Shown here one piece after another: positions 1,921 through 36,959 of a stretch of 64,000 bases of DNA. The notes beneath the pieces are model-generated. The model searched no databases. It was not told where the DNA came from and saw nothing but the letters and a program-made list of their open reading frames with translations. Positions within the stretch are counted from its first letter, which is position 1. Every line of letters begins with the position of its first letter. The stretch spans positions 386,732 through 450,731 of the forward strand of contig JACKFO010000002.1 of NCBI GenBank assembly GCA_020632415.1, written 5' to 3'. Both the position numbers and the translations under genes were made by a program. The stretch is from Candidatus Nomurabacteria bacterium (GTDB taxonomy: Bacteria; Patescibacteriota; Patescibacteriia; UBA1558; GWA2-36-10).

Positions 1921-1960
1921 TTGAGTAGATATTTTTAACAAAAAATAAACTAAAAGTCAA

Positions 1961-3223: not shown

Positions 3224-3228
3224 AAAAA

Positions 3229-5037
3229 CTAACGATTAGGTGGAATCTGGTAATATTCTAGCAGAAATTTGGCAATTTCGCCAAATAAAGGCGCTGTAGT
3301 ATCTGCCGCAAAAGCAGCGGCTTTGGGAAAATCTAATTTAGTAATCATTGTAAATTTTGGATTTTCTACTGGCGCAAAACCAACAAAATTATGAATCACT
3401 CGACTAGAATCATAATAACGACCAGTTTCTGGATTAGCCACCTGCGCTGTTCCCGTTTTACCAGCTATATAATACCCTGGAACCTGCGCCTTGGTTGCAT
3501 GACCATTGTCCACAACATTGGCCAACATTGCCGAAACAGTTGCTGCTGTGCCTTCAGAGATTACTCGCTTCAAAATTTGTGGCTCAAATTCTTGTTTTTG
3601 ACCATTATCATAATCTATCTCACTAACTATATAAGGCTGAACTAAATTACCTTTGTTTGCTAAAACATTTATCGCATTAAGCATTTGCATCGCTGTAACA
3701 GTAATTCCCTGCCCATAAGAAGCTGTTGCTTTATAAATATCACCTTTTTTATCCAAAGAAGAAATGTCGCCTTTGTTCTCTTGGCTAATTTTTAATTTAA
3801 CTTCCTGACCAAAACCAAACTTTGACATGTAGTCTTCGTAAATTTTATTTTTAATATCTTTAGTCGCAAAAATTACACCAGTATTTAAAGAAGATGCCAA
3901 AACTTCCGTCATATCAACTAGGCCGTGTGCTTCTAAATCTGAATTTTTAACTACAAAACCACCGGCAAATTTTACCTCACCTGTATCTTCATAGACGGTA
4001 TCTGCTTTCACTTTTCCAGTATCTATGGCAATTGCCATAGAAATTGCTTTCATTACTGAACCTGGCTCATAGACATCATAAACTGCCAAATTATTGTAGA
4101 CGTCAATATTTTCAACTTGATTGTATTGATTTGGATCGAAGCTTGGATAATTACACATTGCCTTGATTGCGCCAGTTTGCGTCTCCATCACGATCACAGT
4201 CCCACTTTCTGCTTCATAACGCGCCACAGCCCTTTCTAGAGCCTTACAAGTCTGATATTGAACCGTGCGATCAATGGTTAAAACTAAATCTGAACCATCT
4301 TCAATCAAAGATTCAATTTCTGAAAAAGGCAACAAACGTCCACTGATATCTTTTTCTGCAACTACTCTTTTTCCAGTACCCGCCAAATCATCTTGCCAAT
4401 AGGCCTCTAGTCCATATTTACCAACTCGGGAAACTCCGTCTTCAGCAAAACCCAAAAAGCCCAAAAGATGAGCGCCAACTTCTTTATCTGGATAAAAACG
4501 TAAAATTTGTTTATCCCAAAAAACACCAGTTGTCAGCTGTTTTTCAGAATCAATTTTGTCTTTGTTAATATCCGCCAATAAATTGTCTAAAGCTGCAATC
4601 AAAATTTCTAATTTATCTTGACTAATATTTTTTTTAATCGCTTCATACTGATCATTAGTCTTTTCTAGCTTAGCCAATGTTTCTTCTGGCTCAACTTCCA
4701 AAACTTCTACTAAAATATCTCGTAAATTCTGTGGTCTAGTTACTAATTCTGGATTCACATAAACTTCGTAATAGATTTCATTGATTGCCAAAGGATAAAG
4801 CTGGCTATTTTCTTTTTTATCAGTAAAAGCAAAAATTTCACCACGCTCTGGCTCAAAAACTTTGATTGTTTGATGTTGTTTGTTGGCAATTTCACGATAT
4901 TTTTCATTTTGCAAAATCTGCAAATAAAACAAACGAATCACAATAGCAATAATCAACAAAAAAATAACCCATTGTAGGGTATTAATCCGAAAATTACTCA
5001 CCAAAAGATTATTGTGATTGTGACGATTATTATACAT
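3229..5037 (-). CDS. ftsI: Penicillin-binding protein 2 / FtsI-type transpeptidase
   Basis: N-terminal TM helix, SxxK (SVMK) and KTG(T) motifs; 602 aa; dcw context between ftsL and murF. Confidence 0.85.
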   Translation of the reverse strand: MYNNRHNHNNLLVSNFRINTLQWVIFLLIIAIVIRLFYLQILQNEKYREIANKQHQTIKVFEPERGEIFAFTDKKENSQLYPLAINEIYYEVYVNPELVTRPQNLRDILVEVLEVEPEETLAKLEKTNDQYEAIKKNISQDKLEILIAALDNLLADINKDKIDSEKQLTTGVFWDKQILRFYPDKEVGAHLLGFLGFAEDGVSRVGKYGLEAYWQDDLAGTGKRVVAEKDISGRLLPFSEIESLIEDGSDLVLTIDRTVQYQTCKALERAVARYEAESGTVIVMETQTGAIKAMCNYPSFDPNQYNQVENIDVYNNLAVYDVYEPGSVMKAISMAIAIDTGKVKADTVYEDTGEVKFAGGFVVKNSDLEAHGLVDMTEVLASSLNTGVIFATKDIKNKIYEDYMSKFGFGQEVKLKISQENKGDISSLDKKGDIYKATASYGQGITVTAMQMLNAINVLANKGNLVQPYIVSEIDYDNGQKQEFEPQILKRVISEGTAATVSAMLANVVDNGHATKAQVPGYYIAGKTGTAQVANPETGRYYDSSRVIHNFVGFAPVENPKFTMITKLDFPKAAAFAADTTAPLFGEIAKFLLEYYQIPPNR

Positions 5038-5403: not shown

Positions 5404-6375
5404 TTAAATTTTTTCAGCAATTCGTAAAATTGCACTACGACTTCGAGGATTATTTTTTACTTCTTCACTACTTGGCTTAATCGCCTTTTTAGTAATAATT
5501 TTTAATTTTGCTTCCGTATCACAGTTACAAATCGGAGCCTGTGGTGGGCAAACACAAGTTTGACTAGATTCTTTAAAAAAATATTTAACAATTTTGTCCT
5601 CCAAAGAATGAAAACTAATAACCGCTATTTTTCCGCCCGAAGGCAAAATATCTACCGCTTGTGGTAAAACTGTTTTAACATTATTCAACTCATCGTTCAC
5701 GGCAATTCTTAAGGCCTGAAAAACCTTAGTTGCTGGATGAATTCGAAAACGTCCTAAACTTGTTTCTTTAATATTCAAAATCCGGAGTATGGTCAAGACA
5801 AACATGGAAGTCGTAAATTTTTGTTTTTGTTTTATCCACGAACTTCTATTTTTTATTAGGCCTTGGGCCAAAATATGGGCTTTTGGTTCTTCACCATACT
5901 CCCGAAAGATTTTGCATAATTCACTTTCAGACCAAGTCAAAATGATATCTTCGGCGGTCAAAGTCTGATGTTTAGGATCAAAACGCATATCTAAAGGTCC
6001 TTGATCCTTGAAGGAAAAACCACGCCCAGAACTATCTAGCTGGTCAGATGATAAACCTAAATCCAAAACAATACCGGCAATCTCTCCAATTTCTTTCTGC
6101 TTTTTCTGCCATTCTTCGGCTAAATGGATATAACTCTGATTAACAATGAACAATCTTTTTTGATATTTATTTAATCTTTTTTGACTAGCCTTAATCGCTC
6201 TTTGATCAAGCTCAAAAGCCAAAACTTTACCGCGTGGACCATTCTTTTCTAAAATCTTTTCTGTGTGTCCTCCGCCACCTAAAGTACCGTCAATAAAGTT
6301 TTGATTGGCCTTAATTTCTAGACCCTTAACTACTTCTTCTAGTAAAACAGTTTGATGCTGAAAATTATCTTTCAT
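5404..6375 (-). CDS. rsmH: 16S rRNA (cytosine1402-N4)-methyltransferase RsmH (MraW)
   Basis: N-terminal HQTVLLEEVV...DGTLGGGGHT SAM-binding signature; 323 aa; follows mraZ. Confidence 0.9.
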   Translation of the reverse strand: MKDNFQHQTVLLEEVVKGLEIKANQNFIDGTLGGGGHTEKILEKNGPRGKVLAFELDQRAIKASQKRLNKYQKRLFIVNQSYIHLAEEWQKKQKEIGEIAGIVLDLGLSSDQLDSSGRGFSFKDQGPLDMRFDPKHQTLTAEDIILTWSESELCKIFREYGEEPKAHILAQGLIKNRSSWIKQKQKFTTSMFVLTILRILNIKETSLGRFRIHPATKVFQALRIAVNDELNNVKTVLPQAVDILPSGGKIAVISFHSLEDKIVKYFFKESSQTCVCPPQAPICNCDTEAKLKIITKKAIKPSSEEVKNNPRSRSAILRIAEKI

Positions 6376-6376
6376 A

Positions 6377-6808
6377 TTAAATACCCAAATCTACCAAGCC
6401 TTCAGTCATTTCATTGGTGTCTTTTTCAGAAACCATCTGATATTTAGACCATTTCTTTTCATCCCAAATTTCAATTCGATTATACAAACCAGCTAAAATT
6501 ACTTTTTTATTTAAAGTAGCAAAGTTTTTTAAATAATCTGGCATCACAATTCTACCCTGTTTATCAAGAGAAACATCCATTGCGCCAGCGAGCATCAAAC
6601 GAGAAAAAGCACGAGATTTAGCTTGGCTAATTGGTAAAGCTGATAATTTTTCTACTAGTTTATTCCATTCTTTGGTAGTGTAAACAAATAAACAATTATC
6701 CAAGCCCTTAGTAATTATTGCTCCATCTTTAAAGAAACTCCGAAACTTTGTTGGAATTGCCAAGCGATTTTTTTCATCCAAATTGTAAGCGTATTCACCA
6801 ATAAACAT
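6377..6808 (-). CDS. mraZ: Division/cell wall cluster transcriptional regulator MraZ
   Basis: MFIGEYAYNLDEKNRLAIPTKFR... duplicated MraZ fold, 143 aa; first gene of the dcw operon. Confidence 0.9.
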   Translation of the reverse strand: MFIGEYAYNLDEKNRLAIPTKFRSFFKDGAIITKGLDNCLFVYTTKEWNKLVEKLSALPISQAKSRAFSRLMLAGAMDVSLDKQGRIVMPDYLKNFATLNKKVILAGLYNRIEIWDEKKWSKYQMVSEKDTNEMTEGLVDLGI

Positions 6809-6836
6809 ATTTATCCACAGGCTAAGTGCTTAATTC

Positions 6837-6900
6837 CCCACTTTTTACCACTTTTTTATTCATTAACTCCATTATACTCCACCACAAAACACTATGTCAA
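6837..6900 (-). promoter_or_regulatory. mraZ/dcw promoter (TTGACA-18-TATAAT) with downstream GTGG[T/G] direct repeats resembling MraZ boxes
   Basis: Minus strand reads TTGACA (revcomp of 6895-6900), 18 nt, TATAAT (revcomp of 6871-6876), then GTGGT (6848-6852) and GTGGGG (6837-6842) spaced 10 nt start-to-start in the 5' leader. Confidence 0.55.
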
Positions 6901-7991: not shown

Positions 7992-8011
7992 ATCGCTGTC
8001 ACGCGAATTTA

Positions 8012-8040
8012 TTTACTAAAATAAGCAAATATAGTATAAT
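8012..8040 (+). promoter_or_regulatory. Sigma70-type promoter for the 8062 gene (TTTACT-17-TATAAT)
   Basis: TTTACT 8012-8017, 17-nt spacer, TATAAT 8035-8040; ATG at 8062. Confidence 0.45.
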
Positions 8041-8061
8041 ATTATTTGCAAGAAATGTAAA

Positions 8062-10173
8062 ATGACAGAACTAAAAAAACAACGACTATTTATCCACGAT
8101 CACTTAAATTCTCGAGAATTATCCGAAATTTATTTGAGCGAAATTAGAACTGCTGGTCAGTTGTTTATTTTAACTGAGCTCCCAAAAGAAAAAAATGAAT
8201 ACCAAGCAATCATTGACCAAATCACTTCTGAAATAGGAAATTACTTTGAATCTAACTGTGAAAAAGATTCTGAAACTTTACTAGAAGAAATATTACAAGA
8301 ACTAAATAATTTATTACCAGAACTTGCCCCTCAAAAAAATAAGAATTGGTTTCAAAAAATTGACCTGGTTGTTGGTATTATTGCTGATAGCTCTATTTAT
8401 CTCGCTGGCATCGGTCAAATCGAAGCTTTGTTGATTAGTCATAATCAATTCACCAAAATTTTAGAAAACAGTGCGGAAATTAATCCTGCCAAAATATTTA
8501 CTGACATTATCGCCGGCCAACTAGACTCTGGCGATATTTTGATTATCTCTACTAATGCTTTATTTGATTATATTTCTCGAGAAAAAATTCGCTTAATTAC
8601 CCAAAAATATACCCCTCAGACTGCTGTTGATCAAATTCAAAAATTACTTGAAACTGTTCCTGATTTTGTTACTTTTAATTCTTTATTTATCAAAAATCCA
8701 GGCAACCACGACATTGAACTTGTTCAAACAAAAACCGAAGATGATTCAAATGATTATTCTATTTTAGAAAAAACTCCCCAAGAAAGACCACGAATTCAAC
8801 AGCAAAGAACTGAAAATATCAAAAAAAAGCAGAAAGAAAAAGTAAAAACTAAATTGGTTTTTGATAAAAATGGCTTACAAAATATTAAATCAATTCAAAA
8901 ATTAATTTTGGCTTTAAACTTAGCAAAAATTTATTTCTCAATTATTCACCAAATTTTTGCTAAAATATTTTCTTACTTAAAATCAGGATATTTGTTTATT
9001 TTTTCTAGTCGTTATCGTCGTCAAAGCGAAGATAGTTTATTAGAAAAAACTAAAGAGACTGTCCATAAAAAAGTAAATTGGTTCAGCTATTTGACTTGGA
9101 AGAAAAAAATACTAATCATTGCCCTATTGGTTGTTATTCTAATCTTTTTACAGGGCTTGGTATTTTTAACTCAAAAAAAAGCCGCCAATAAACAAGAGCT
9201 AAGCTATCAACAAAATATTCAAAGCATTAATAACACCCTAAATGAAGTAGAGGCTAGTCTAATTTATAATGATGAAAAAAGAGCTGAAGAATTATTGCTC
9301 AACATTCAAAAAATGCTAGATACTTTAAATGCCCAATCTCAAGAACAAGAAACAGAAATCGCTGAAGTTAAAGAACAAACTGCTCGTTTGATCAACAAAA
9401 TTCGTCATATCAACTACGTCTCAGATCCTTTAGAGCTATTTGATTTAAACGCTTTAAATAATTCTCAACAAATTGTCCAAAAAGAAGGAAGTTTTTATCT
9501 TCTAGATCAAGATGCTCTTTATTTACTCAAAGATAACGCTGTAGAAAAAATCAGCGATTTCCCAAATGGACAAACGCTTGCTGATTGGCCGAAACAAAAC
9601 AAGCTAATCTTAAGTGATGACCAAAAATATTATATTTTTAATTTAGACAATCAGAAAATCGAATCTTTTGAGTTTACAAAAAATAGCGGAAACACCAAAG
9701 TTCAAGATATGGCTATTTATAGCAACAATCTTTATGTCTTAGATGACGCTAATAGTCAAATTTTTAAATATCCAGAAAGAGGCTCATCTTTCAGCAACGG
9801 CTCCAGTTGGCTTAAAGAAGAAATAGATTTAAAACAAGCCTATAGCCTAGCTATTGACGGTGACTTGTATTTGACATTGGACAATGGCGAAATCAAAAAA
9901 TTACGCAAAGGAAAATTAGAAACTTTTAGCTATCAACAGCCACATCCGGTAATTGGGCAAAAAGCAATTATCAAAACCTTTGCTGAATCAGAATTGCTTT
10001 ATTTGATTGACCCCGATAACCAAAGAGTAATTATTTTTGACAAAGAAGGAAAAATAAAAGATCAATATACTTCGCCAAAATTTGATAGCTTAGTTGATCT
10101 GGCAATCGACAGCGAAGAAAAAGCAATCTATTTACTAAGTGGCAATCACCTATATTTATTAGCTATTAATTAA
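8062..10173 (+). CDS. Large membrane-anchored hypothetical protein (N-terminal PP2C/SpoIIE-like degenerate domain, TM helix, coiled-coil, C-terminal repeat/beta-rich domain)
   Basis: 703 aa; internal TM helix ILIIALLVVILIFLQGLVFL; N-terminal segment with DLVVGIIADSS...LDSGDILIISTNALFD reminiscent of PPM phosphatase motifs; K/Q/E-rich coiled-coil in the middle. Confidence 0.4.
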   Translation: MTELKKQRLFIHDHLNSRELSEIYLSEIRTAGQLFILTELPKEKNEYQAIIDQITSEIGNYFESNCEKDSETLLEEILQELNNLLPELAPQKNKNWFQKIDLVVGIIADSSIYLAGIGQIEALLISHNQFTKILENSAEINPAKIFTDIIAGQLDSGDILIISTNALFDYISREKIRLITQKYTPQTAVDQIQKLLETVPDFVTFNSLFIKNPGNHDIELVQTKTEDDSNDYSILEKTPQERPRIQQQRTENIKKKQKEKVKTKLVFDKNGLQNIKSIQKLILALNLAKIYFSIIHQIFAKIFSYLKSGYLFIFSSRYRRQSEDSLLEKTKETVHKKVNWFSYLTWKKKILIIALLVVILIFLQGLVFLTQKKAANKQELSYQQNIQSINNTLNEVEASLIYNDEKRAEELLLNIQKMLDTLNAQSQEQETEIAEVKEQTARLINKIRHINYVSDPLELFDLNALNNSQQIVQKEGSFYLLDQDALYLLKDNAVEKISDFPNGQTLADWPKQNKLILSDDQKYYIFNLDNQKIESFEFTKNSGNTKVQDMAIYSNNLYVLDDANSQIFKYPERGSSFSNGSSWLKEEIDLKQAYSLAIDGDLYLTLDNGEIKKLRKGKLETFSYQQPHPVIGQKAIIKTFAESELLYLIDPDNQRVIIFDKEGKIKDQYTSPKFDSLVDLAIDSEEKAIYLLSGNHLYLLAIN

Positions 10174-20772: not shown

Positions 20773-21360
20773 TTATTTTCTATACTTTTCTGCAAAATTT
20801 GCAAAATCTTGTTTAAGTTTATCCCAAGAATCCTCTGTTTCTCTTTTTTCCTGAGGATTTAGCTCAAAATAATTTCTGCTACTAAATTTAGGAAATTCAC
20901 AAACAGAGCAGAGCCAAATTCCTGAACGATAAAACTTTGGGTTATAAACTTTAGCAATTTTCGCATCCATTGCTCTTTGTAAACTAGAAAATAATAATTC
21001 ACCATTATCAGCCACAGCTAAAGCTTCGTGCCACTCTAATCTTCTATCTGTTTTATTTTTCATCAACTCCAATAATTTATCAATTCTTTCTTGATCTGTC
21101 TCAGCAAATCTCTTAGTAGTTAAAGGATTCCAGTCATCCAGAGCTGGTATTACTGCTCCGCCGTCAGTAGAAATCGCCAATCCTTTTACCTGCCTTGAAT
21201 AAAAAATCGCCTTGTTTTCTGCAATTTCTAAAAAATTTTCACCAGATTCTTCAAATTCAAGATTATTTTCTAAATCAATAGGATCAAAATAATCTTTAAC
21301 TATTTCAATCAAAAAATTCCTTTTATATGGATTACCCGTGCCAATTAAAATATTTTTCAT
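20773..21360 (-). CDS. Ham1/RdgB-like non-canonical purine NTP pyrophosphatase (divergent)
   Basis: LIGTGNPYKR (compare ATGNxGK), EESGENFLEIAENKA (compare EETGxTFxENAxxKA), STDGGAVIPAL (compare ADDSGLxVDAL). One of the paired Asp residues is replaced. Confidence 0.5.
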   Translation of the reverse strand: MKNILIGTGNPYKRNFLIEIVKDYFDPIDLENNLEFEESGENFLEIAENKAIFYSRQVKGLAISTDGGAVIPALDDWNPLTTKRFAETDQERIDKLLELMKNKTDRRLEWHEALAVADNGELLFSSLQRAMDAKIAKVYNPKFYRSGIWLCSVCEFPKFSSRNYFELNPQEKRETEDSWDKLKQDFANFAEKYRK

Positions 21361-22406
21361 TTATTATTTTCTACCCCTAAGGCCAATTCTATTAGCTCAC
21401 TAATCAAGGCTTTAAAACTTACACCGCTCGCTTCCCATAATCTTGGGTACATACTAAATTTTGTAAACCCAGGAATAGTATTAATTTCGTTAACAATCCA
21501 CTTATTCTCTTTACTCAAAAAGAAATCTACTCGAGCTAAACCAACGCAATTCAAAATTTTAAACACTTTTATTGCCAAATCTTGCGCTTCTACAACTAAT
21601 TCTTGCGACAAACTAGCCGGCACAATCAAGCTAACGCCATTTTCATCAAAATATTTGGCCTGATAAGAATAAAAGTCATGCTTCTTTTGGCTTGCGACAA
21701 TCTCTCCTAAAATTGAGGCTTTAGGATTTGAATTACCAAAAATTGCACATTCAATCTCACGACCAAAAATATTTTTTTCAATAATAATTTTAGAATCAAA
21801 TGAAAAAGCCTCTTTTATCGCCTCTAAAAATTCTGACTCAACTTGCACCTTACTAATGCCAACGGAAGACCCTAAATTTGCCGGTTTGACAAAAAACGGC
21901 AAGCCTAGTTTTCTAACAATTTCATCAAAATTAATTTTTTCTTGCTCATTATTACAAAAAATTAAAAAATCACCAATTGGTAGACCAGCCTCTTTTAACA
22001 ATCTTTTCATCACGTCTTTATCCATGCCAACGGCAGATCCTAAAACTCCAGCGCCAACAAATGGAACGCCAGCTAATTTAAGCAAACCCTGCACAGAGCC
22101 ATCTTCCCCATAAGGACCGTGTAAAATTGGAAAGGCTAAATCAAATTTCTTTTCTTTTTGACCATTTTCTTTTACTACCTGTCCTGCCCCACCAAGAATC
22201 AAAATACATTCTCCCAAAATATTACCTTCTGGATTAACAACGCTTTTAACAAAGTACCAATTCCCAGATTTGTTGATATAAATTAAAACTGGTTGATATT
22301 TTTCTTGATCAAGATGCTCAAAAATTGCTTGAGCGGAATTAATAGAAACTTCATGTTCAGCTGATTTGCCACCAAAAATTAAAGCTATTCTTTTTTTTAT
22401 TTTCAT
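21357..22406 (-). CDS. ddl: D-alanine--D-alanine ligase (canonical)
   Basis: IALIFGGKSAEHEVSINS N-domain, central FPILHGPYGEDGSVQGLL, C-terminal RVDFFL...NEINTIPGFT; 349 aa. Confidence 0.9.
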   Translation of the reverse strand: MKIKKRIALIFGGKSAEHEVSINSAQAIFEHLDQEKYQPVLIYINKSGNWYFVKSVVNPEGNILGECILILGGAGQVVKENGQKEKKFDLAFPILHGPYGEDGSVQGLLKLAGVPFVGAGVLGSAVGMDKDVMKRLLKEAGLPIGDFLIFCNNEQEKINFDEIVRKLGLPFFVKPANLGSSVGISKVQVESEFLEAIKEAFSFDSKIIIEKNIFGREIECAIFGNSNPKASILGEIVASQKKHDFYSYQAKYFDENGVSLIVPASLSQELVVEAQDLAIKVFKILNCVGLARVDFFLSKENKWIVNEINTIPGFTKFSMYPRLWEASGVSFKALISELIELALGVENNK

Positions 22407-22412
22407 AAATAA

Positions 22413-22418
22413 ATTATA
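22413..22418 (-). promoter_or_regulatory. -10 element TATAAT placed 6 nt upstream of the ddl ATG (probable leaderless transcript)
   Basis: Revcomp of ATTATA at 22413-22418; only TTATTT separates it from the ATG at 22406. Confidence 0.4.
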
Positions 22419-22440
22419 TATTTATTTCTTTAAAAATACC

Positions 22441-22467
22441 AATTAAAAAGGGTAGCAAAAGCTACCC
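22441..22467 (-). terminator. Intrinsic terminator after the VanX-like gene
   Basis: GGGTAGC-AAAA-GCTACCC perfect 7-bp hairpin followed on the minus strand by a U-rich tract. Confidence 0.7.
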
Positions 22468-22475
22468 TCGCCAAA

Positions 22476-23258
22476 TTAAGGCTCGGTATATGAGTAGAAA
22501 GCATCACAATGTTTAACTAATCCATCCATTTGATTACCATAATTAAAATGCCATATTTCCGGACCATAACAACTAAAGCCAGCCTTGACCATCGCCAAAA
22601 TCAAACAAGAGCGATTCTTAATAACCATGGCATCATTATCAGAGAATGCCTTCCTTCTAGCCTTCAGATGATAAAAAGTGCCCGCATCCTCTTTCATCCA
22701 ATCAAAGGGCACTCCCAAATCAACAGCAACGCCATCTCTAAATGGCCAGACATCAATTGATCCACCTGTAGCATGTGGACTTGGGACCATTGAATCTTTA
22801 GAAGGCCAACTCACATAAGCGCGATTTACATCAAACATTGCCGACTGTACATTTTTTGGCAATGTAAAAAAATAATTCCTAACATCATCACAGTCAACTA
22901 AACCCGAAAACCCAGCTGATAAATTAAATTTATCAGCAGTAAATTCTCTCATGTAATACCAGAAAAGTTTCTCCTGTAGCTCATAAGACCGCCAACCATC
23001 ATAAACGATTAAGTCAAACCCTTGATCCAACAGAATGCTCCTGGCCTTCAAGAATCTATCCAAAACTGAACTTCTAATAAAAATTCTATGATCCGTAGTC
23101 AAATGCATGGAATGACAATAATACGAATAACGCATTTCGCTAGGGATTTCCACTAGCAGATCATTATTTTCAATGATTCTCACTTTTCTCCAATCGCCAA
23201 ATTTGTAAGAAAAAAGTGTTTGAAAACGCACCAGCTGCAATTTGAGTTGATTAAACAT
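22476..23258 (-). CDS. VanX/DdpX-family D-alanyl-D-alanine dipeptidase (peptidase M15D)
   Basis: SPHATGGSIDV matches the VanX Zn-binding motif SxHxxGxAxD, EIWHF matches ExxH, DGWRSYELQ matches the DGYRP region. The likely start is MFNQLK (ATG 23256-23258) preceded by a GGAG SD. The TTG-initiated extension to 23324 in the ORF track runs through the leader hairpin and is unlikely to be translated. Confidence 0.7.
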   Translation of the reverse strand: MFNQLKLQLVRFQTLFSYKFGDWRKVRIIENNDLLVEIPSEMRYSYYCHSMHLTTDHRIFIRSSVLDRFLKARSILLDQGFDLIVYDGWRSYELQEKLFWYYMREFTADKFNLSAGFSGLVDCDDVRNYFFTLPKNVQSAMFDVNRAYVSWPSKDSMVPSPHATGGSIDVWPFRDGVAVDLGVPFDWMKEDAGTFYHLKARRKAFSDNDAMVIKNRSCLILAMVKAGFSCYGPEIWHFNYGNQMDGLVKHCDAFYSYTEP

Positions 23259-23305
23259 TTTCGCTTCTCCTCTGTTTTGAATGTGCTTTTCTTCATGATA
23301 TTTCC

Positions 23306-23392
23306 AACAAAAAACCACGCCCAAAATGGACCTGGCCTGTTAAAAATATTTAATTATTAAATCTATTTTACACCTAAAAAATTATTTGTCAA
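23306..23392 (-). repeat. Copy A of an ~87-nt duplicated promoter-plus-hairpin leader (TTGACA-16-TAAAAT, then GC hairpin plus U-tract)
   Basis: Near-identical to 25951-26037. Minus strand has TTGACA (23387-23392) and TAAAAT (23365-23370), then hairpin CCAGGTCC/GGGCGTGG (23315-23335) followed by UUUUUUGUU, upstream of the VanX-like start. Confidence 0.6.
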
Positions 23393-24374: not shown

Positions 24375-25034
24375 TCAAAAAATGATTACATTACCTTTTT
24401 CGGAAAAAGAATTAGAAAAATCCTCTCCAGAAATTTTCCAATTAGAATGCTCGTAACTCCCCTCTGACGAAGGATGGTGTAATATAAAATCATCTATTCG
24501 TCCATTTGAAACATCGGTCCCAAAAATCAAAACCAAATGACCACCTCTAGGCATGACATCAGTGGAGCCATCAAGTTCTTCATATTTTTTACCCGCCTCA
24601 AACCCAACTGTAACAGATGCAATAACCATTCTTTGATTTTGAATATGTGTTGCAATTCTTTTAACATTAGCCCCAACAGACTCCCTAAATCCATCTAACC
24701 CCAAGGAATTACCTAAATCGACTAATCCTTGATGTTTCCAGCCATGCTCCTCATCATAAGCCCCTAGAGCTAAGCCACGATCTAATAACTCTTTTAATTT
24801 AAAATCTTGATCTGGATAATTTTTTAACAACACCATCTTTAAACAAGCTAGACCACAAATTCTTTCTGACCAATACTCTGCTTCATCCCAATTATTAAAA
24901 CCTTCTTTTTGATAATTTTCTTTAGTTAACCTTTGTGAGTAAAAAGGAACATCGCTAATTTCAAAATGCCCATCGATGATTTCCGATCTATTTTCAAATA
25001 AATTTTTAAATTTCATAAATATTGTGCCTTGCAT
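24375..25034 (-). CDS. Standalone C39-type (papain-like) cysteine peptidase domain protein
   Basis: ERICGLACLKMVL matches the C39 catalytic-Cys signature CGxACLxM; the downstream GGHLVLIFG supplies the His. 219 aa, no transporter domain. Overlaps the upstream ligase gene by about 11-29 nt. Confidence 0.5.
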   Translation of the reverse strand: MQGTIFMKFKNLFENRSEIIDGHFEISDVPFYSQRLTKENYQKEGFNNWDEAEYWSERICGLACLKMVLLKNYPDQDFKLKELLDRGLALGAYDEEHGWKHQGLVDLGNSLGLDGFRESVGANVKRIATHIQNQRMVIASVTVGFEAGKKYEELDGSTDVMPRGGHLVLIFGTDVSNGRIDDFILHHPSSEGSYEHSNWKISGEDFSNSFSEKGNVIIF

Positions 25035-25950: not shown

Positions 25951-26037
25951 AACAAAAAACCACGCCCAAAATGGGCCTGGCCTGTTGCAAATATTTAATT
26001 TGTATTATTATTCTACACCTAAAAAATTATTTGTCAA
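25951..26037 (-). repeat. Copy B of the duplicated promoter-plus-hairpin leader (TTGACA-16-TAGAAT, then GC hairpin plus U-tract)
   Basis: Minus strand has TTGACA (26032-26037) and TAGAAT (26010-26015), then hairpin CCAGGCCC-AUUUU-GGGCGUGG (25960-25980) followed by UUUUUUGUU, 12 nt before the paralog-3 ATG. Confidence 0.6.
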
Positions 26038-28854: not shown

Positions 28855-29553
28855 TTATGTAAAATTTAATATCCTCCATTTACGATTAATTGATACAGAT
28901 AACATCTTTTTTTTAGGATTCACAACTATGGGAATATCAGCCCAATTTAAAAGCTCAAAATCCGAATAATGATCAGAATAAACATGCACTAAAGGCCTAT
29001 GCTTAAATCGAAAATTATTATGCAAAAATTTACCAGCCGCCAACATTTTATCTCCACCATTCAAAACAACGCTTTTTAATTCCCCTGAATAAACATTGTT
29101 TTTAATATCTAAAACAGTCGAAATATAAAAATCAATATGTAAAAATCTACAAAATTGCTCAGCTATAGGATGTATTACATTTGATATAAGAACAATAATA
29201 TCGCCCTGTTGCTTGTACTTATTTATTAATAAAATAGCATCTTGAAATAAGTCATTTTTTATCTCAGCAAAAAAAAATTTATTCATCAAACTATACACCT
29301 CGCAATCATTCCACCCAGCAAAAATGCTGGCTAAATACTTTAAGCCAAACTCAATATTCTTTATTACTCCTATTTTATATAAAAAAAACCAAAAGAAAAC
29401 CAATGGCAAAGACATAAAGTGAATATAACCATTTTTATAAAGATATATGATTAATTTTTTTTGTGTATACCCATTAACAATAGTATTATCTATGTCAAAA
29501 AAAATAACTTTTTTCTTACCATTAATAATCATAAGTCTGTCCACATAAACCAC
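28855..29553 (-). CDS. HAD-superfamily (subfamily IB-like) phosphatase
   Basis: FFDIDNTIV DxD motif at the N-terminus; 232 aa; overlaps plsC by 32 nt. Confidence 0.55.
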   Translation of the reverse strand: MVYVDRLMIINGKKKVIFFDIDNTIVNGYTQKKLIIYLYKNGYIHFMSLPLVFFWFFLYKIGVIKNIEFGLKYLASIFAGWNDCEVYSLMNKFFFAEIKNDLFQDAILLINKYKQQGDIIVLISNVIHPIAEQFCRFLHIDFYISTVLDIKNNVYSGELKSVVLNGGDKMLAAGKFLHNNFRFKHRPLVHVYSDHYSDFELLNWADIPIVVNPKKKMLSVSINRKWRILNFT

Positions 29554-30115
29554 TGATTGTCTTCATAATCTTTATGGTTTCTTTATTAAAATCTTGACTC
29601 CTTACAAAAAAAACTTTCCCTATATTAATCTTACATTTTTTAAATTTTGGAAATCTATTTTCCGGTGGCCAAGCCAAAAAAGTTCCCTCAATGCCTATTG
29701 GTAGAACAGGAATGTTGTATTCATGTGCGAATTTTGCCACCCCACTATAAGCCTTACCAATACAACCATTCCTAGATCGAGTTCCTTCTGGAAAAATTCC
29801 TAGGACCCCCCCACTTCTCAATACATCGCCAACCTTTACATAAACATCGTTTTTATTATGAGAATTTCTATCAACTTTAATCTGCCCAGTCATTTCCATA
29901 ATTGGCTTCCATATTTTACTCGAAAAAAATTTTTCCGCGGCTAAAAATGATATTCTTCTAGGAAATAAAATAAATAAAATAATAAAATCTAAATAACTGT
30001 TATGGTTAGCGGCTAAAATAAAATTACCATCCGGAATATTGTTTTGGTTATTTATTTTTACTCGCCATAATAGCTTAATTGGTAAGTAAAATAAAAATCT
30101 TAATAAAAAATACAT
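29522..30115 (-). CDS. plsC: 1-acyl-sn-glycerol-3-phosphate acyltransferase (LPLAT/PlsC family)
   Basis: NHNSYLD (HxxxxD) and FPEGTRS motifs; 197 aa. Confidence 0.75.
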   Translation of the reverse strand: MYFLLRFLFYLPIKLLWRVKINNQNNIPDGNFILAANHNSYLDFIILFILFPRRISFLAAEKFFSSKIWKPIMEMTGQIKVDRNSHNKNDVYVKVGDVLRSGGVLGIFPEGTRSRNGCIGKAYSGVAKFAHEYNIPVLPIGIEGTFLAWPPENRFPKFKKCKINIGKVFFVRSQDFNKETIKIMKTISGLCGQTYDY

Positions 30116-31830
30116 TATGTTATAAATTTCTCTTTAATCCTCGCTCTTCTTAACTTTAAAGTCGGTGTTAATAAGCCATTTTCTTGTGAGAATTCTTGTT
30201 CTAATAACTTAAAATTATTCACCCTCTCTAAATGCGACCAATCTTTTAATTTTTCAGACAAAACATCAGAGTAAAGTTCTAAAACCTTTGTGTTATGTAA
30301 AATATCTGGAAATGAATAATTAAGATCATGCTCATTACACCAAATTTCTAATTCTTGAAAATCCGGTACAATTAACGCCGCGATATTTTTTTGCTTATCT
30401 CCATAAACAAAGCTTTGGGAAATAAGCTTACTCTCATTTAGCGTATTTTCAATTGGTTCTGGAAAAATATTTTTACCAGTAGAAAGAACAATCATATCTT
30501 TCGCTCTACCGATAATCGTTAAAAAACCATCTGCGTCTAAAAAACCAAGATCTCCAGTATGAAACCAAGCATCATTGTCGATCGCTCGCGCACTTTGTTC
30601 CTTATTATTATAGTATCCTTTCATCAAATTGTCACCTTTGACTAAAATCTCTTTATCTTCACCAATTTTTAATTGATTACAACTCAAAACTTTTCCTACA
30701 GTTCCAAATTTGTAATTCTTTAGTTGATTCACTGCGATAATTGGAGATGTTTCGGTTAAGCCATAGCCTTCGATTATTTGAATTCCAATATTAGCAAAAA
30801 ATTTAGCAATTGCGGGATTCAAAGAAGCACCACCAGAAATAGCCATTCGTAGATTACCGCCTAAAATTTTTCTTAATTTTTTAATAACCAATTTATCCAA
30901 GAAGAATAAACTAATTTTCTCTTTAAATTTTAATTTTCGCTGTTTTTTATACTTTGATAAATTAAGAGCTTGAAAAAATAAATGTTTCTTAAAATCCCCT
31001 CCAGCTCTAACTTGATCAAAAATTTTATCATAAATTTTTTCAAAAATACGCGGCACAGCATTAAGTACTGTCGGCTGAGCTAACTGAATATCTTCCACAA
31101 TTGTTTTGCTGTTACGAGCAAAATAAATACTGGCACCAGAAAATATTGGCGCGTAATACCCGGCACATCTTTCAAAAGCGTGAGAAAGCGGCATAAAAGA
31201 AAAAAACCTATCACGATTAGTAATATCAATCACGGCTTTGGCCGACATAACATTGGTGATTAAATTTTTATGGCTAAGCATCACTCCTTTTGGATCACCG
31301 GTGGTCCCAGAAGTGTAAATAATCGTATGCAAATCATTGTCATCAACAACTATTTTTTCCAAAACATCATAACTATTTTTGACAGGCATTTTCGGCCACA
31401 ACTTAATTACTTGATTTAACTCTTTGCAATCTCCAACAACTACGATATTTTTAAAAGAAAATTTTAACCAAATATCTTTAAATTTATTAAAATATTCTTC
31501 CTGAATAACTAAATAATCAACGTTAGCATGACTAAGTATTTGCTCAAGTTGCAAGCTATTATAAGTCAAATGTAACGGCACCAAGATCAAACCCAAACTA
31601 GCCAAAGCTAGGTCACTGACAATCCATTCCGGACCATTGCTCAACATTACAGCAACTTTTTCTTGTTTCTGCCAATTCCAAGCATGTAAATTGCTCACCA
31701 AGATTTTTCTTTGTTGATTAAGTTTTTGATAAGTAATTTTGTGATACTTTCCGCCAGAAAAATAAGCCAAAGCAATATTTTTAGGATACATTTTAGCTAT
31801 AGACTCAAATTTTGTAGCAATCGTGAACAT
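30115..31830 (-). CDS. Long-chain-fatty-acid--CoA ligase (AMP-dependent synthetase)
   Basis: AMP-binding motif IIYTSGTTGDPKGVMLSHKNL; 571 aa. Confidence 0.8.
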   Translation of the reverse strand: MFTIATKFESIAKMYPKNIALAYFSGGKYHKITYQKLNQQRKILVSNLHAWNWQKQEKVAVMLSNGPEWIVSDLALASLGLILVPLHLTYNSLQLEQILSHANVDYLVIQEEYFNKFKDIWLKFSFKNIVVVGDCKELNQVIKLWPKMPVKNSYDVLEKIVVDDNDLHTIIYTSGTTGDPKGVMLSHKNLITNVMSAKAVIDITNRDRFFSFMPLSHAFERCAGYYAPIFSGASIYFARNSKTIVEDIQLAQPTVLNAVPRIFEKIYDKIFDQVRAGGDFKKHLFFQALNLSKYKKQRKLKFKEKISLFFLDKLVIKKLRKILGGNLRMAISGGASLNPAIAKFFANIGIQIIEGYGLTETSPIIAVNQLKNYKFGTVGKVLSCNQLKIGEDKEILVKGDNLMKGYYNNKEQSARAIDNDAWFHTGDLGFLDADGFLTIIGRAKDMIVLSTGKNIFPEPIENTLNESKLISQSFVYGDKQKNIAALIVPDFQELEIWCNEHDLNYSFPDILHNTKVLELYSDVLSEKLKDWSHLERVNNFKLLEQEFSQENGLLTPTLKLRRARIKEKFIT

Positions 31831-33229: not shown

Positions 33230-34190
33230 TTAAATTCGCTTTTAACATTTTTGGCCAATCACTCTCTGCGACATTTGCCATCAACCACAAAACTTTGGCA
33301 ATCACTGTTTCTTTGGTACAAGAACTGATGGTGCTAAAATCTTTTTCTTGTTGTAAATACTGAGGATGATAAAGAATCACTGTCTTTTCTAAAGATTTAA
33401 AATACTTAATCTGTTCAAGTGACAACTCTTCATCGTGTAAAAACACTAAAACAGCCTGATAATTTACAAAAGCTTCTTTGGGCCATAAATTTTTTTCCTG
33501 CAAATAATCATCAATAATACACAAACCTCGGGACAAATTCTGATATTTCTTGGTCAAATTTTTAGAATAAGCTAAATTATTTTTGTAACTAATCCCAAAA
33601 TCTATTTTAGCCAAATAATCGTCATCAACACTGCTCAATACATATTTTCCTTGTTGATACTCTAATTTTGCTTTGATGCCAGCAACCAAGCGACTGCCAA
33701 ACATCACCGCTACTTGTGCCAATTCTTCTCCTGCTACTTGCACAGCATTAATCAAATTGGATCTCAAACCCAAACCCCCTTGATTAGCAATCAGATCTTG
33801 CATGATTTCCTTTTTTTCTTTGGTATAAGCTCCGCTCATTTGTGAAGCGGTAACTACGATAGTTTTTTTAAAATTTTGCAATAAAAAATTCAAAACCGTA
33901 GCAGTCAAAATAGCTCTTTCTGCTTTGGTCACCACAACAAATCCGTCATAATCTGCTTCTTTTTTGATAATCAAGGTTGCTAATTTTTCCCATAAAGAAA
34001 AACTAAGCTGCGCTTCTTCATTGACCACAAACTCTGTTTCTACTGCTGACAAAATTCCTAATTCTGGCATAGTATTGAGCCATAAATCAACATCACCAGT
34101 GTTATTGACTGCCAACATATTTTTTGCCTTATCAACTGTCCAAGTACCACCGGCTAAGAGTAAACAAATTTTCTTCTTAGTTTTGGTCAT
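33201..34190 (-). CDS. L-asparaginase/GatD-family protein with degenerate second catalytic motif
   Basis: LLAGGTWT (compare TGGTIAG); YDGFVVVTKAERAILTATVLNFLLQNFKKTIVVTASQ aligns with AnsA [24 protein letters not shown]...VIVTGSQ, with HGTDT replaced by TKAER. Confidence 0.5.
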   Translation of the reverse strand: MTKTKKKICLLLAGGTWTVDKAKNMLAVNNTGDVDLWLNTMPELGILSAVETEFVVNEEAQLSFSLWEKLATLIIKKEADYDGFVVVTKAERAILTATVLNFLLQNFKKTIVVTASQMSGAYTKEKKEIMQDLIANQGGLGLRSNLINAVQVAGEELAQVAVMFGSRLVAGIKAKLEYQQGKYVLSSVDDDYLAKIDFGISYKNNLAYSKNLTKKYQNLSRGLCIIDDYLQEKNLWPKEAFVNYQAVLVFLHDEELSLEQIKYFKSLEKTVILYHPQYLQQEKDFSTISSCTKETVIAKVLWLMANVAESDWPKMLKANLIDEFVNFKK

Positions 34191-34891
34191 TACTGTTTAC
34201 GATTAAAGGCTACTAAATAAAATACAACTAAATTCATGGGTATAGTAAAGATTGGGCCAACCCAAATATATGAATGAATATCAAAATAATCTAAAAATAA
34301 ATCAAAGTACGCACCAACAACAAGGCCTATTAATATAGTAATAAATAAAAGCTTTGTCCCTAATTTAAAGTGAGATTCGATATTGACGTACTTAGACCAC
34401 AAAATATACAATGAATAACAAACCATGGCTATAAATAATAAACTATACAAAATATAAAAAGGCTTAAAATAAGTTACATAAACTTCGTGAGCATTATTAA
34501 TTCTACCAAAATCCAATATGTGAGTTTTCGTGTAAACAACAAAAGAAATAGCAATCGAAACTCCAATGATAATATTTCTATGAATTTTCTTTATTACTCT
34601 AGTTGGAAATGGAAAATAAAAAATGAAATAAAATAAAAATACAGATATAAACCAAGCAGAAAGATAAGAAGTTTGAAAGAAAAACTTAGAAACGGTCAGG
34701 TCAAAAAACGCTAAACTAACAAACAAACTAGTGCCCCAGCCAAAACAAGAAAGAGCCAACAAAGAGAAATAAAGATTAATTTTATTTTTTACACCTCTGC
34801 TCAAGATAAAAATGGCCATGCCCAAATTAATCAAAGCAGATATTAACAATAACCAATTTTTCCAACCCAAAGGTGATGTTAAAAAATCCAT
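34190..34891 (-). CDS. HisKA_7TM-like multi-pass membrane protein (no kinase domain), paralog a
   Basis: 233 aa, about 7 TM helices. The N-terminus (LISALINLGMAIFILSRGVKNKINLYFSL) is paralogous to the N-terminus of the 26046 histidine kinase and to the two neighbouring genes. Confidence 0.5.
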   Translation of the reverse strand: MDFLTSPLGWKNWLLLISALINLGMAIFILSRGVKNKINLYFSLLALSCFGWGTSLFVSLAFFDLTVSKFFFQTSYLSAWFISVFLFYFIFYFPFPTRVIKKIHRNIIIGVSIAISFVVYTKTHILDFGRINNAHEVYVTYFKPFYILYSLLFIAMVCYSLYILWSKYVNIESHFKLGTKLLFITILIGLVVGAYFDLFLDYFDIHSYIWVGPIFTIPMNLVVFYLVAFNRKQ

Positions 34892-34895
34892 ATGT

Positions 34896-35585
34896 TTAAT
34901 ATTCTAATTTCTTATCTTTTTTTAAAAATATTAAATAAAATGCTACAAAATTAATAGCCAAAGTAAATAGTGGACCTAAATAATAAAATCTAAATTCATC
35001 AAAATACATGGCGTACAAATTAAAATAGCTACCAGCAGCAACTCCGACTATCACCCCTAATAACACCAAGAATATTGATCTTTTAAAAATCTTATCTGCC
35101 TTCAGGTATTTTAACCATAAATGCACAATTGCTAGCAACATTAAAATACTTAAAACAATTGTAAAGATTAAGTAAGCGATCGGCTCATAAACAACCGTAT
35201 TTAAATAATTAATTTTAACGGATAAAGAAAATTTTTGGTAAAAAAATAAAAAATACAACGAAGCTACATAAAAAATAAAACTAAGAATCTTTTTAAAATA
35301 ATCATTTAAATTTACATTTTTAAAAGGAAAATGAATCGTAAAATAAAAAAGATTTAATACTACTAATAAAGATGCAAAATAAATAAAGCTAGCAGAAAAT
35401 CTGACAACTTCATAATTATTACTCAACCTAAACAATAATAAACCACCAGCCCACAAAATATTAAAAAAGGTCATCAAGGAAAAGTACTTATTTATTGGAT
35501 TTTTCCAACCGCGCCTAATAATTATAAGGCTCATTATCAAATTTAATATCGCTGCTAAAAATAAAAGTAAAGCTTTATAATCCAT
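34896..35585 (-). CDS. HisKA_7TM-like multi-pass membrane protein, paralog b
   Basis: 229 aa; LAAILNLIMSLIIIRRGWKNPINKYFSL shares the RG-KN-INxYFSL motif. Confidence 0.5.
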   Translation of the reverse strand: MDYKALLLFLAAILNLIMSLIIIRRGWKNPINKYFSLMTFFNILWAGGLLLFRLSNNYEVVRFSASFIYFASLLVVLNLFYFTIHFPFKNVNLNDYFKKILSFIFYVASLYFLFFYQKFSLSVKINYLNTVVYEPIAYLIFTIVLSILMLLAIVHLWLKYLKADKIFKRSIFLVLLGVIVGVAAGSYFNLYAMYFDEFRFYYLGPLFTLAINFVAFYLIFLKKDKKLEY

Positions 35586-35594
35586 ATAATTAAA

Positions 35595-36959
35595 TTATTT
35601 ATTTGCTAATAACAAACTACCAACAGCAATGTCTAAATATTTTTGAATATTTTCCATAAATTGCAACTGCTGACGAGATAGTAATTTTTGTCCATGGTCA
35701 ATAATCAAAACTCCTAATAATTGTTGATTATAAAAAATTGGCAAGGCTAAATCAATTTGCTGTTTTTGTAAAGCCACTGCCAAATACTTATCTTCCTGCC
35801 AATAATCAAGCTCCGCCTGATGAATCAACTTGCTCTGGCTTGCCAAAAACTGCAATAGTTGACTATCGTTTAAATTTAATAAACGCTCACCAACTGGAAA
35901 AACTTGATGAAAAACCTCATGATTATTATGCTTAGCCAAATAAACAAAAATTTCTCGGTAGCTAATCACCTGACTTATTTCTTTGGCTAGTTGCGAAAAA
36001 AGAGTATTCAAGTCTCTAGTTGAACGTAAAATTTCAGCAATGCTTAACTCTGCTTGTTTTATTTTTTGATTAGGATTAAAAAATAAAAGATTTACTAAAC
36101 GAAATAAAAATTTATACAACCATGGAGAGGTGAGCCCGATAAACAAAACAAATAAAATTTGGTCTAAGACATTTTTAAAATCTAAATCAATAAAGTTTAA
36201 TAATAACCAGAAAATCAAATAATAAATCACCAAGACAATAAATAAAGTCAGTAAATCAATTGCGCTTTTAGAAAATGATAATTTTAAATCCAAAAAACGA
36301 TCATGCGAAAGAGCATAAACCAAAACAATCGTAAAAAATACCGAAGAGTCAACGCCAATATAAAATAATGACTTAATATTGATCAGAGGTAAAATAACGC
36401 TAAACAACAAACCTAGAATAGCTGTAATTGCTGTACCAAAAAAAATATAATCAATTTGTTTTTTGATAACCAAATTTGCTTGCCGACGATTTTTCAACAA
36501 AAAAGATAGAGCAAAAATTAACAAAGCAGCAAAATATATACTAAAAAACCAATACAAATAACCTTGTTCAAAAACAAACCCGCTTTCAGTCAAAGTGACC
36601 GACTTGACATTATAAGCAGTAAACAAAAAAGGAATCGCCACAATCGCTGGTAAAAATAAAGCATTTTTTTTCCAAGCTACTAAATTTTTCCACAAACCAA
36701 ACAAAGAAAAAACCAGCCATACAAAGGCTGGAGCCAAAAAAAGATTAGGCAACAAACCAAAACGAGCGCCTAATAATAAATGATCTGTTCCTCGAAGCCA
36801 AAAAACATTAGTCAACTCAATTACCTCCCAAAGAGTAATCAAAAAAATTAAGACAAAAAGCGGCACTCTTTGCTGCTGTTTTTTATTTAAGCCAACATAA
36901 ATCAATAAAGTGATATTGATCGCCAAGGCCAGCCATAAAATAAGATTAGCTAAAGTCAT
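35595..36959 (-). CDS. 7TM sensor-domain protein with C-terminal GAF-like domain and no kinase output
   Basis: 454 aa; N-terminal 7TM region paralogous to the above; C-terminal roughly 150 aa with a GAF-like pattern (…LAVALQKQQIDLALPIFYNQQLLGVLIIDHGQ…). Confidence 0.5.
   Translation of the reverse strand: MTLANLILWLALAINITLLIYVGLNKKQQQRVPLFVLIFLITLWEVIELTNVFWLRGTDHLLLGARFGLLPNLFLAPAFVWLVFSLFGLWKNLVAWKKNALFLPAIVAIPFLFTAYNVKSVTLTESGFVFEQGYLYWFFSIYFAALLIFALSFLLKNRRQANLVIKKQIDYIFFGTAITAILGLLFSVILPLINIKSLFYIGVDSSVFFTIVLVYALSHDRFLDLKLSFSKSAIDLLTLFIVLVIYYLIFWLLLNFIDLDFKNVLDQILFVLFIGLTSPWLYKFLFRLVNLLFFNPNQKIKQAELSIAEILRSTRDLNTLFSQLAKEISQVISYREIFVYLAKHNNHEVFHQVFPVGERLLNLNDSQLLQFLASQSKLIHQAELDYWQEDKYLAVALQKQQIDLALPIFYNQQLLGVLIIDHGQKLLSRQQLQFMENIQKYLDIAVGSLLLANK

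Follow-up and report, generated by a model that had tools for sequence, protein, structure and literature searches.

A free-standing C39_2-like cysteine enzyme encoded between two Ddl-derived ligases in a Candidatus Nomurabacteria genome

The DNA described here is a stretch of 64,000 nucleotides (nt) from Candidatus Nomurabacteria bacterium (contig JACKFO010000002.1, positions 386,732 to 450,731; referred to throughout as the window), and it carries on its reverse strand a small gene for a C39-like cysteine enzyme placed between two genes, ligA and ligB, whose products are ATP-grasp ligases derived from D-alanine--D-alanine ligase (Ddl) (Table 1; protein lengths in amino acids, aa). A preliminary description, made from the letters of the sequence, had read the small gene as coding for a standalone C39-type protein without a transporter, wedged between two Ddl-like ligases and overlapping the upstream one, and this much was borne out. 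The translated product contains ERICGLACLKMVL, with Cys60, and GGHLVLIFG, with His166, and has no transmembrane (TM) or ATP-binding cassette (ABC) domain by Pfam or hydropathy; Pfam, NCBIfam and PDB matches identify the ligases on both sides; and the gene overlaps the ligA stop codon (25006..25008), by 11 nt if it is read from the ATG at 25016 and by 29 nt if it is read from the ATG at 25034. The second of these ATG codons, 25016, is probably the true start, since homologues begin there and the NCBI model of the protein (P0001, named 'C39 family peptidase [Candidatus Nomurabacteria bacterium]') is 213 aa long. On the other side, ligB starts 12 nt past the stop codon of the C39-like gene and is preceded by a Shine-Dalgarno-like site, AAGGCG.

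Table 1. Positions of the C39-like gene, its ligase partners and nearby features, in coordinates of the window
Feature	Position	Strand	Details
7TM-GAF-GAF histidine kinase, 934 aa	26046..28850	-	directly upstream of the ligase cassette
Promoter/leader, copy 1	25955..26037	-	TTGACA-16 nt-TAGAAT, hairpin CCAGGCCC-ATTTT-GGGCGTGG, T-run; ends 14 nt before the ligA ATG
ligA, Ddl-derived ATP-grasp ligase, 311 aa	25006..25941	-	Pfam Dala_Dala_lig_N and _C
C39_2-like papain-fold cysteine enzyme	24375..25034	-	219 aa; 213 aa from ATG 25016; Gln34, Cys60, His166, His187
ligB, strongly diverged Ddl-derived ATP-grasp ligase, 326 aa	23382..24362	-	Pfam Dala_Dala_lig_C, 67.6 bits
Promoter/leader, copy 2	23310..23392	-	TTGACA-16 nt-TAAAAT, same hairpin and T-run; upstream of the M15 gene, overlaps the ligB 3' end
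VanX/DdpX-like M15 D-Ala-D-Ala dipeptidase homologue	22476..23324	-	Pfam Peptidase_M15, 41.1 bits against a cutoff of 27
Bona fide D-alanine--D-alanine ligase (housekeeping Ddl next to the module)	21357..22406	-	NCBIfam NF002528, 437 bits against a cutoff of 262

The sole Pfam match of the C39-like protein was to PF13529 (Peptidase_C39_2; 29.7 bits against a cutoff of 24, E=1.1e-6), spanning residues 28-188 of the protein and positions 2-142 of the 143 in the profile, and a precomputed match to the same family is common to many of its homologues. No match to PF03412 was found for it in Pfam at E<=0.01, and weak PF03412 matches were seen in a few homologues only. The maximum Kyte-Doolittle mean over 19 residues is 0.95, which leaves neither a TM helix nor a signal peptide, and because there is no hydrophobic segment the protein is taken to be soluble and cytoplasmic. 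An AlphaFold (AF2) model made from an alignment of 32 homologues reached a mean pLDDT of 94.4, and when it was compared with the PDB using Foldseek the top match was 3erv, a C39-like peptidase of B. anthracis (E=2.9e-7, TMq 0.56), followed by the ComA peptidase domain, PCAT1, papain-like contact-dependent inhibition (CDI) toxins, phytochelatin synthase Alr0975 (TM 0.49) and cathepsins; proteins named endolysin, lysozyme and lysin A are among its viral structural neighbours. A search of the PDB with the single sequence gave no match, and a profile search with the family gave 3erv only (E=0.021). In that profile alignment GGH(166) falls on the catalytic His of 3erv and 'HHPS' falls on its 'RDP', placing His187 in the slot of the catalytic Asp, and both the alignment and the structure hold the Cys and His in catalytic register with this C39-like peptidase; the misplaced Cys/His pair that the preliminary description had named as grounds for rejecting its reading was thus not seen.

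These positions are conserved in the family. Counted over the ungapped sequences at each position among 187 family members, Gln34 is kept in 162 of 165, Cys60 in 183 of 184 and His166 in all 186, while position 187 is occupied by His in 94 sequences, by Asn in 46 and by Asp in 42, which, as read from the alignment, is the pattern expected for the third residue of a papain-type catalytic centre. Judged by sequence and by the predicted model together, the protein is an active-looking clan-CA (papain clan) cysteine enzyme belonging to a diverged branch of C39_2. Its subfamily is not a small one; an exhaustive profile search returned 1257 cluster representatives (clustered at 50% identity) with E<=1e-3, of which 75 have E<=1e-30, so that the earlier statement that free-standing C39_2-like proteins are rare does not stand for this subfamily alone.

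Both flanking ligases score well short of a Ddl. The best NCBIfam Ddl score of LigA is 148.5 bits, below the cutoff of 243, and its best PDB sequence match is a Ddl (E=2.8e-18); LigB reaches 94 bits against the same cutoff of 243, and its best PDB match, over the full length, is the B. anthracis Ddl 3r23 (E=9.7e-15). LigB is named by NCBI as a hypothetical protein, and a search for its homologues gave only 10 proteins, none with an informative name. Both ligases and their orthologues were aligned at the active site with E. coli DdlB (whose numbering is used here), the Ddl of the window serving as an internal control and having all of the Ddl catalytic residues present. LigA retains E15, H63, E68, K144, K215, Y216, R255, D257, E270, N272, G276 and S281, and departs from the Ddl catalytic set by L282N in 7 of 7 orthologues and S150G in 6 of 7. 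LigB retains the ATP-grasp core (K97, K144, S150/S151, E180, K215, R255, D257, E270 and N272), but the H63-G64-E68 loop is gone, and its orthologues carry G276V/A, S281D and L282F in 7 of 7 and Y216N in 6 of 7, the seventh being gapped at this position. By their scores and residue sets, LigA and LigB are Ddl derivatives of which neither is a bona fide Ddl, although LigA would still work in the manner of one. Leu282 of DdlB corresponds to Arg322 of VanC2, which is reportedly a determinant of the second substrate (Healy et al. 1998), and Ser281 of DdlB binds the carboxylate of the incoming D-Ala. With its second-substrate site altered, LigA probably makes a D-Ala-D-X dipeptide in which X is polar, and the remodelled nucleophile site of LigB suggests that its nucleophile would lack an alpha-carboxylate or that its acyl donor would be longer.

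The gene order ligA-C39-ligB, with overlapping genes, was found in about 10 diverged lineages (loci are given here as L numbers and proteins as P numbers), comprising the window, L001, L005, L007, L011, L013, L017, L069 and L072, with L071 partly so. The overlaps are usually of 4 nt, the C39-like proteins of these loci are 41-60% identical to the query, and the genes surrounding the triads are unrelated. L011 and L013 are from Patescibacteria, L017 is from a metagenome-assembled genome (MAG) of a gammaproteobacterium and the others are metagenome contigs. The association of the C39-like gene with its flanking ligases is therefore not accidental. At L007 the triad is adjoined by genes for a histidine kinase, two response regulators, an M15 protein, a Ddl and serine hydroxymethyltransferase, in that order. 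Distant actinobacterial and soil homologues (25-30% identity) lie in uninformative neighbourhoods.

Two further gene settings are recorded here as observations in their own right. At L011 (3203-8056, the same as L012 and L015), in a genome of Berkelbacteria/Saccharibacteria type, a six-gene block has been inserted between rpsJ (S10) and rplC (L3), consisting of S-adenosylmethionine decarboxylase (SpeD), ligA, the C39-like gene, ligB, an agmatinase-like gene and a deoxyhypusine-synthase-like gene, and this hints at a polyamine connection of the module. In Endozoicomonadaceae, whose members here are symbionts of marine invertebrates (L003, L018 and L021), the C39-like gene (8001-8576) is translationally coupled to the next gene, which encodes a full-length glutathione S-transferase (GST)-like partner, and the pair is divergent from a class-Ib tRNA synthetase gene. 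This case suggests a different, possibly glutathione-type substrate, or else horizontal transfer between Patescibacteria and Gammaproteobacteria.

The wider family is linked to D-Ala-D-Ala enzymes beyond the triads, by fusion as well as by adjacency. P0098 is a Ddl above the equivalog cutoff (480.7 against 457) fused to a C39-like domain, and P0058 and P0114 are MurF-like ligases with such a domain, which start at the P-loop and so are without the UDP-MurNAc-binding domain 1; P0114 scores 203 bits with the MurF model and only 18 bits with the MurT model. In P0045 the C39-like domain is fused to a GNAT acyltransferase. At L014 a true Ddl gene overlaps a C39-like gene whose product is 60% identical to the query, in a Rhizobium isolate (L057) a C39-like gene and then a Ddl gene form a two-gene unit, and in a MAG of Pseudomonadales (L047) a C39-like gene is followed by an M15 gene and then by the gene of a Ddl-like ligase carrying Y216F. 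In a Burkholderia isolate (L037) the order runs from a Ddl-like ligase carrying Y216H through an Asp/Glu racemase and a gene of no assigned function to the C39-like gene. The order DnaJ, an unnamed gene, PlsC-like, RimK-like ATP-grasp, C39, Ddl-like is seen at L025, L076 and L078, and at the syntenic L064 it is DnaJ, an unnamed gene, PlsC-like, MurF-like-C39 fusion, Ddl-like; the first ligase has thus been swapped non-homologously with retention of the peptidase and the Ddl-like ligase. The common denominator of the partners is an amide-bond-forming enzyme for small D-amino-acid peptides. From the gene overlap in the window it had been proposed earlier that the C39-like gene is translationally coupled and functionally linked to the ligase, and the conserved triads, the Ddl and MurF-like fusions and the M15 and racemase neighbours now put this on firmer ground than could have been known from the window.

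Lipid-type enzymes, an AMP-binding acyl-activating enzyme and a PlsC-like acyltransferase, are encoded near the module in two lineages (window 29522..31830, reverse strand; L013 5245-6957; L025 6258-7091; L064 2659-3444), which may reflect shared ancestry of the gene order or may be a hint of an acylated product. Separately, in two Patescibacteria loci (L028 5562-7952 and L041 5650-8001) the beta subunit of phenylalanyl-tRNA synthetase has an NlpC/P60 domain (70-74 bits) inserted after B3_4 and ahead of B5, which is unusual for a core translation enzyme, and directly behind the gene come a distant C39-like gene and then gyrB.

Downstream of the triad in the window lies the M15 gene, whose product has weak NCBIfam matches to DdpX and VanX and the motifs SPHATGGSID (SxHxxGxAxD) and EIWH (ExxH). 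The listed TTG start (23324) falls inside the leader element and its hairpin, so that translation probably begins at the ATG at 23258 and yields about 260 aa; the orthologue at L007, of 264 aa, agrees with this length. The triad and the M15 gene are each preceded by a copy of an element of about 83 nt that combines a promoter with a hairpin leader. The two best sigma70-like promoters between 21 and 26.3 kb, matching at 11 of 12 positions, immediately precede ligA and the M15 gene, and the GC-rich hairpin reads CCAGG(C/T)CC-ATTTT-GGGCGTGG across both copies. Exactly 2 copies of the element are present in the 64-kb window where 0 are expected by chance. Rfam (E<=1) gave no family at the element, and weak matches at 20.7 kb were below gathering scores and unrelated. 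The element suggests that the ligA-C39-ligB triad and the VanX-like gene are expressed alike in this genome, and it may be an attenuator or an operator. It was also found upstream of ligA at L013, the closest relative, and upstream of a tryptophanyl-tRNA synthetase (TrpRS) gene at L014, and the latter occurrence makes it a lineage-specific promoter/leader rather than a signal specific to this system. A terminator-like hairpin (22448..22469) follows the M15 gene, and the housekeeping Ddl has a promoter-like site of its own at 22442..22413. The TrpRS of L014 is itself peculiar: the complete gene (1762-3450) has a composition unlike its AT-rich surroundings, with long overlapping open reading frames (ORFs) on both strands as in GC-rich DNA, and a second, truncated TrpRS-like ORF (6179-6886) lies directly upstream of the Ddl-C39 pair, so this stretch may be foreign DNA or an assembly chimera.

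Compared with van-type clusters, the window offers the altered position 282 of LigA, a VanX-like M15 gene with the shared promoter/leader and a histidine kinase upstream, but no response regulator is adjacent to that kinase and no VanH, VanT or VanY homologue is present in the window. The PADLOC models of defence systems matched none of the C39-like, LigA, LigB and M15 proteins. The kinase gene is one of four genes with the HisKA_7TM sensor module within 11 kb (the window, 34190..36959, together with the kinase gene itself, all on the reverse strand); two of these encode the 7TM module only (233 and 229 aa), one a 7TM+GAF protein without a kinase core (454 aa) and one the full kinase, and no response regulator was seen beside any of the four.

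Our preferred reading is that the C39-like protein would serve its ligases as a hydrolytic partner, in the form of a thiol-type amidase or carboxypeptidase of the cytoplasm whose substrate is a D-aminoacyl peptide or a precursor that ends in D-Ala-D-X, and to this we would give a probability of roughly 0.45. We are considerably more confident of its general part, and think it likely that this is an active cytoplasmic papain-fold enzyme with a functional tie to Ddl-type ligases, that it does not process leader peptides and that it has a small substrate containing a D-amino acid. The fold, the catalytic residues, the location in the cytoplasm, the conserved gene order, the fusions to Ddl and MurF-like ligases and the promoter/leader in common with the M15 gene are what the analysis shows; the chemical nature of the substrate, and hydrolysis rather than transfer, are what we infer. 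In such a scheme LigA, with Asn at 282, would build a D-Ala-D-X dipeptide, and LigB, without the H63 loop and with Asp and Phe at 281 and 282, would couple that peptide to another partner, possibly an amine without an alpha-carboxylate. The Cys60 enzyme, with Gln34 forming the oxyanion hole and with His166 and His187, would then cut an amide bond in the D-aminoacyl peptide, or alternatively would take the terminal D-residue off a precursor ending in D-Ala-D-X. The combination of a ligase with a peptidase that reverses it is a recurrent design, known from glutathionylspermidine synthetase/amidase (GspSA), RimK with RimB, tubulin tyrosine ligase with vasohibin, and VanA with VanX and VanY.

Several points weigh against a hydrolytic partner. 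A constitutively co-translated hydrolase undoing the work of its own ligases would waste ATP unless it were regulated, and a plain D-Ala-D-Ala hydrolase would be redundant because the cluster already has the metal-dependent M15 homologue. Where the domain is fused to a bona fide Ddl or a MurF-like ligase, successive steps (supply or transfer) would account for the fusion no less well than opposing ones. The triad within a polyamine operon, in the one lineage of L011, points to an acceptor other than cell-wall precursors, and the Endozoicomonadaceae homologues (about 45% identity) have no adjacent ligase and overlap the GST-like gene; flanking ligases are likewise absent beside the close homologues P0024 (L009) and L016 and in several distant branches, and this C39-like branch has no characterised member. 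The main rival is a cytoplasmic transpeptidase or transacylase, in which Cys60 would attack the D-Ala-D-X bond, free the last residue and pass the acyl group to an amine acceptor such as another peptide, a polyamine or the side chain of a precursor, by a logic that may be likened to that of phytochelatin synthase on glutathione, of BtrH and CtaG in butirosin and closthioamide synthesis, and of the cell-wall transpeptidases that spend D-Ala-D-Ala. Phytochelatin synthase uses a tripeptide that two ATP-dependent ligases build and transfers a dipeptide from it, and Alr0975 is, as noted, among the structural neighbours. Co-translation and the ligase fusions suit a biosynthetic line better than a futile cycle, the S281D change of LigB suggests an amine acceptor lacking a carboxylate, the L011 triad sits in its SpeD-agmatinase-deoxyhypusine-synthase-like block, and the Endozoicomonas homologues are paired with a GST-like protein. 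BtrH and CtaG, which are C39-like transacylases, team with the ATP-grasp ligases BtrJ and CtaD (PMC7183216), but they require a carrier protein, and none was found among the annotated neighbours in the window and at the triad loci, where small ORFs were not exhaustively searched. Nor can an acceptor be named, the polyamine context being confined to one lineage, and no sequence feature in the clan separates transferases from hydrolases. We regard a transferase as a possible reading, though a less probable one than hydrolysis. More speculative, and in our view rather unlikely, is a whole route independent of non-ribosomal peptide synthetases and carriers, in which the two Ddl-derived ligases would store the energy of ATP in a D-Ala-D-X peptide and the Cys-His enzyme would spend that bond by transpeptidation, the outcome being either a conjugate of the peptide with an amine, for instance a polyamine (glutathionylspermidine-like, in Patescibacteria), or an inducible, van-like rewriting of precursor ends by a non-metallo enzyme.

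Fusion and adjacency to bona fide Ddl and MurF-like ligases would also join consecutive steps if the enzyme were an LdcA-like salvage peptidase, freeing D-Ala or D-Ala-D-Ala from imported or recycled muropeptides for use by Ddl and MurF in an organism of limited biosynthetic ability, and the reduced metabolism for which the host lineage, the Patescibacteria, is known, together with structural relatives annotated as phage endolysins, would agree with this. Salvage, however, leaves unexplained the two extra, specificity-altered Ddl paralogues that flank the gene in most lineages, and the MurF-like fusion partner is without the UDP-MurNAc-binding domain and lies outside a cell-division cluster, so we consider it improbable. 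That same lack of domain 1 recalls MurT, and Cys-His chemistry is able to hydrolyse glutamine, so that the enzyme might be imagined as an ammonia donor to the ligases, as GatD is beside the Mur-ligase-like MurT, in a module that amidates a carboxylate. The scores of P0114 with the two models speak for MurF and not MurT, however, Ddl-type partners do not use ammonia, and we know of no papain-fold glutamine amidotransferase; a glutaminase role thus seems very remote. Equally remote, and largely refuted, is a classical C39 leader peptidase maturing a ribosomal peptide, with the ATP-grasp enzymes as graspetide-type modifiers. The CGxAC motif and the C39-clan fold are as such a role would have them, and combinations of ATP-grasp enzymes with C39 do occur in microviridin/graspetide clusters in the literature, but the ligases here are Ddl derivatives with a catalytic set for small substrates and not graspetide ligases, the protein has neither a PF03412 match nor an ABC transporter domain, a precursor gene could not be fitted between genes that overlap or are spaced by 12 nt, the whole window when searched with a permissive pattern yielded no small ORF with a Gly-Gly-like leader, and the fusions of the family are to Ddl and MurF-like enzymes. 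Two other ideas were set aside: a toxin/immunity function, raised by the structural matches to CdiA-CT and papain-like toxins, was dropped as nothing in the gene context supports it, and a racemase independent of pyridoxal phosphate, using Cys60 and Cys64, is unlikely because CGxAC is an ordinary C39 motif and both Cys lie on one helix.

The novelty lies in a cytoplasmic ligase-peptidase-ligase module that is conserved and in the coupling, seen across the family, of its peptidase to Ddl and MurF-like enzymes, fusions included. No description of such a module was found in the searchable literature on C39 or C39_2 with Ddl, ATP-grasp, D-Ala-D-Ala or Patescibacteria, although an earlier computational mention is possible. 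The Patescibacteria (candidate phyla radiation, CPR) account for a large share of bacterial diversity, and almost nothing is known of the chemistry of their envelopes; the module points to an undescribed peptide or variant of a cell-wall precursor. The natural fusions to Ddl and MurF-like ligases make the module open to direct tests, its components all being small soluble proteins. Should the enzyme prove to edit or transfer D-Ala-D-X termini, VanX and VanY would gain a new, non-metallo counterpart, with a bearing on intrinsic glycopeptide insensitivity and on the building or salvage of the wall in symbionts with reduced genomes, and the database label 'C39 family peptidase', which misleadingly implies bacteriocin processing, would need correction.

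Among known systems, the resemblance to 3erv and C39_2 lies in the above-threshold family match, the best structural match, the motif order VPFxxQ...CG...GH...xDP/HHP and a single domain without a transporter. The query differs in being only about 15% identical to 3erv, in having His rather than Asp as the third catalytic residue of its branch, in a conserved insert of about 25 residues between Gln34 and Cys60 (N40, E44, G45, F46, W55 and R58), in the absence of a signal peptide and in its setting between Ddl-type ligases. With the C39 peptidase domains of ComA, LagD and PCAT1 (PF03412) it shares the clan, the core fold and the CGxAC motif and His in the same order; unlike them, it is a single-domain protein without an ABC exporter, a PF03412 match or a Gly-Gly precursor ORF, and its partners are amino-acid ligases. 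Papain-clan enzymes other than these that cleave cell-wall peptides are well known. C39_2 domains are moreover listed in the literature as catalytic domains of endolysins, and together with the structural neighbours named as endolysins this means that a cell-wall peptide would not be a wholly new substrate for the clan, so that the 'new activity class' foreseen in the preliminary description was too strong a term; the D-Ala-containing peptide or peptidoglycan stem suggested there is a putative substrate.

Phytochelatin synthase (C83; Alr0975) resembles the C39-like protein in its papain fold and in taking the C-terminal residue off a small peptide that two ligases build non-ribosomally; it differs in having no sequence-level family match and another substrate-binding region, and a glutathione-related (GST-like) neighbour occurs with the Endozoicomonas homologues only. 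BtrH and CtaG with BtrJ and CtaD likewise form amide bonds without the ribosome by pairing a C39-related enzyme of the papain clan with an ATP-grasp ligase (PMC7183216), although those systems are thiotemplated on carrier proteins, none of which is among the annotated neighbours of this cassette, whose ligases are of Ddl type. In GspSA, in VanA with VanX and VanY and in RimK with RimB, an ATP-dependent ligase of small peptides is physically coupled, through fusion or a shared operon, to an amidase of the thiol or metal kind that works on bonds of this type, and the cassette may be likened to these, the more so as the C39-like family also shows the coupling in the form of fusions; its putative amidase is C39_2-like rather than CHAP or M15, and the ligases that accompany it are two in number and both Ddl-derived.

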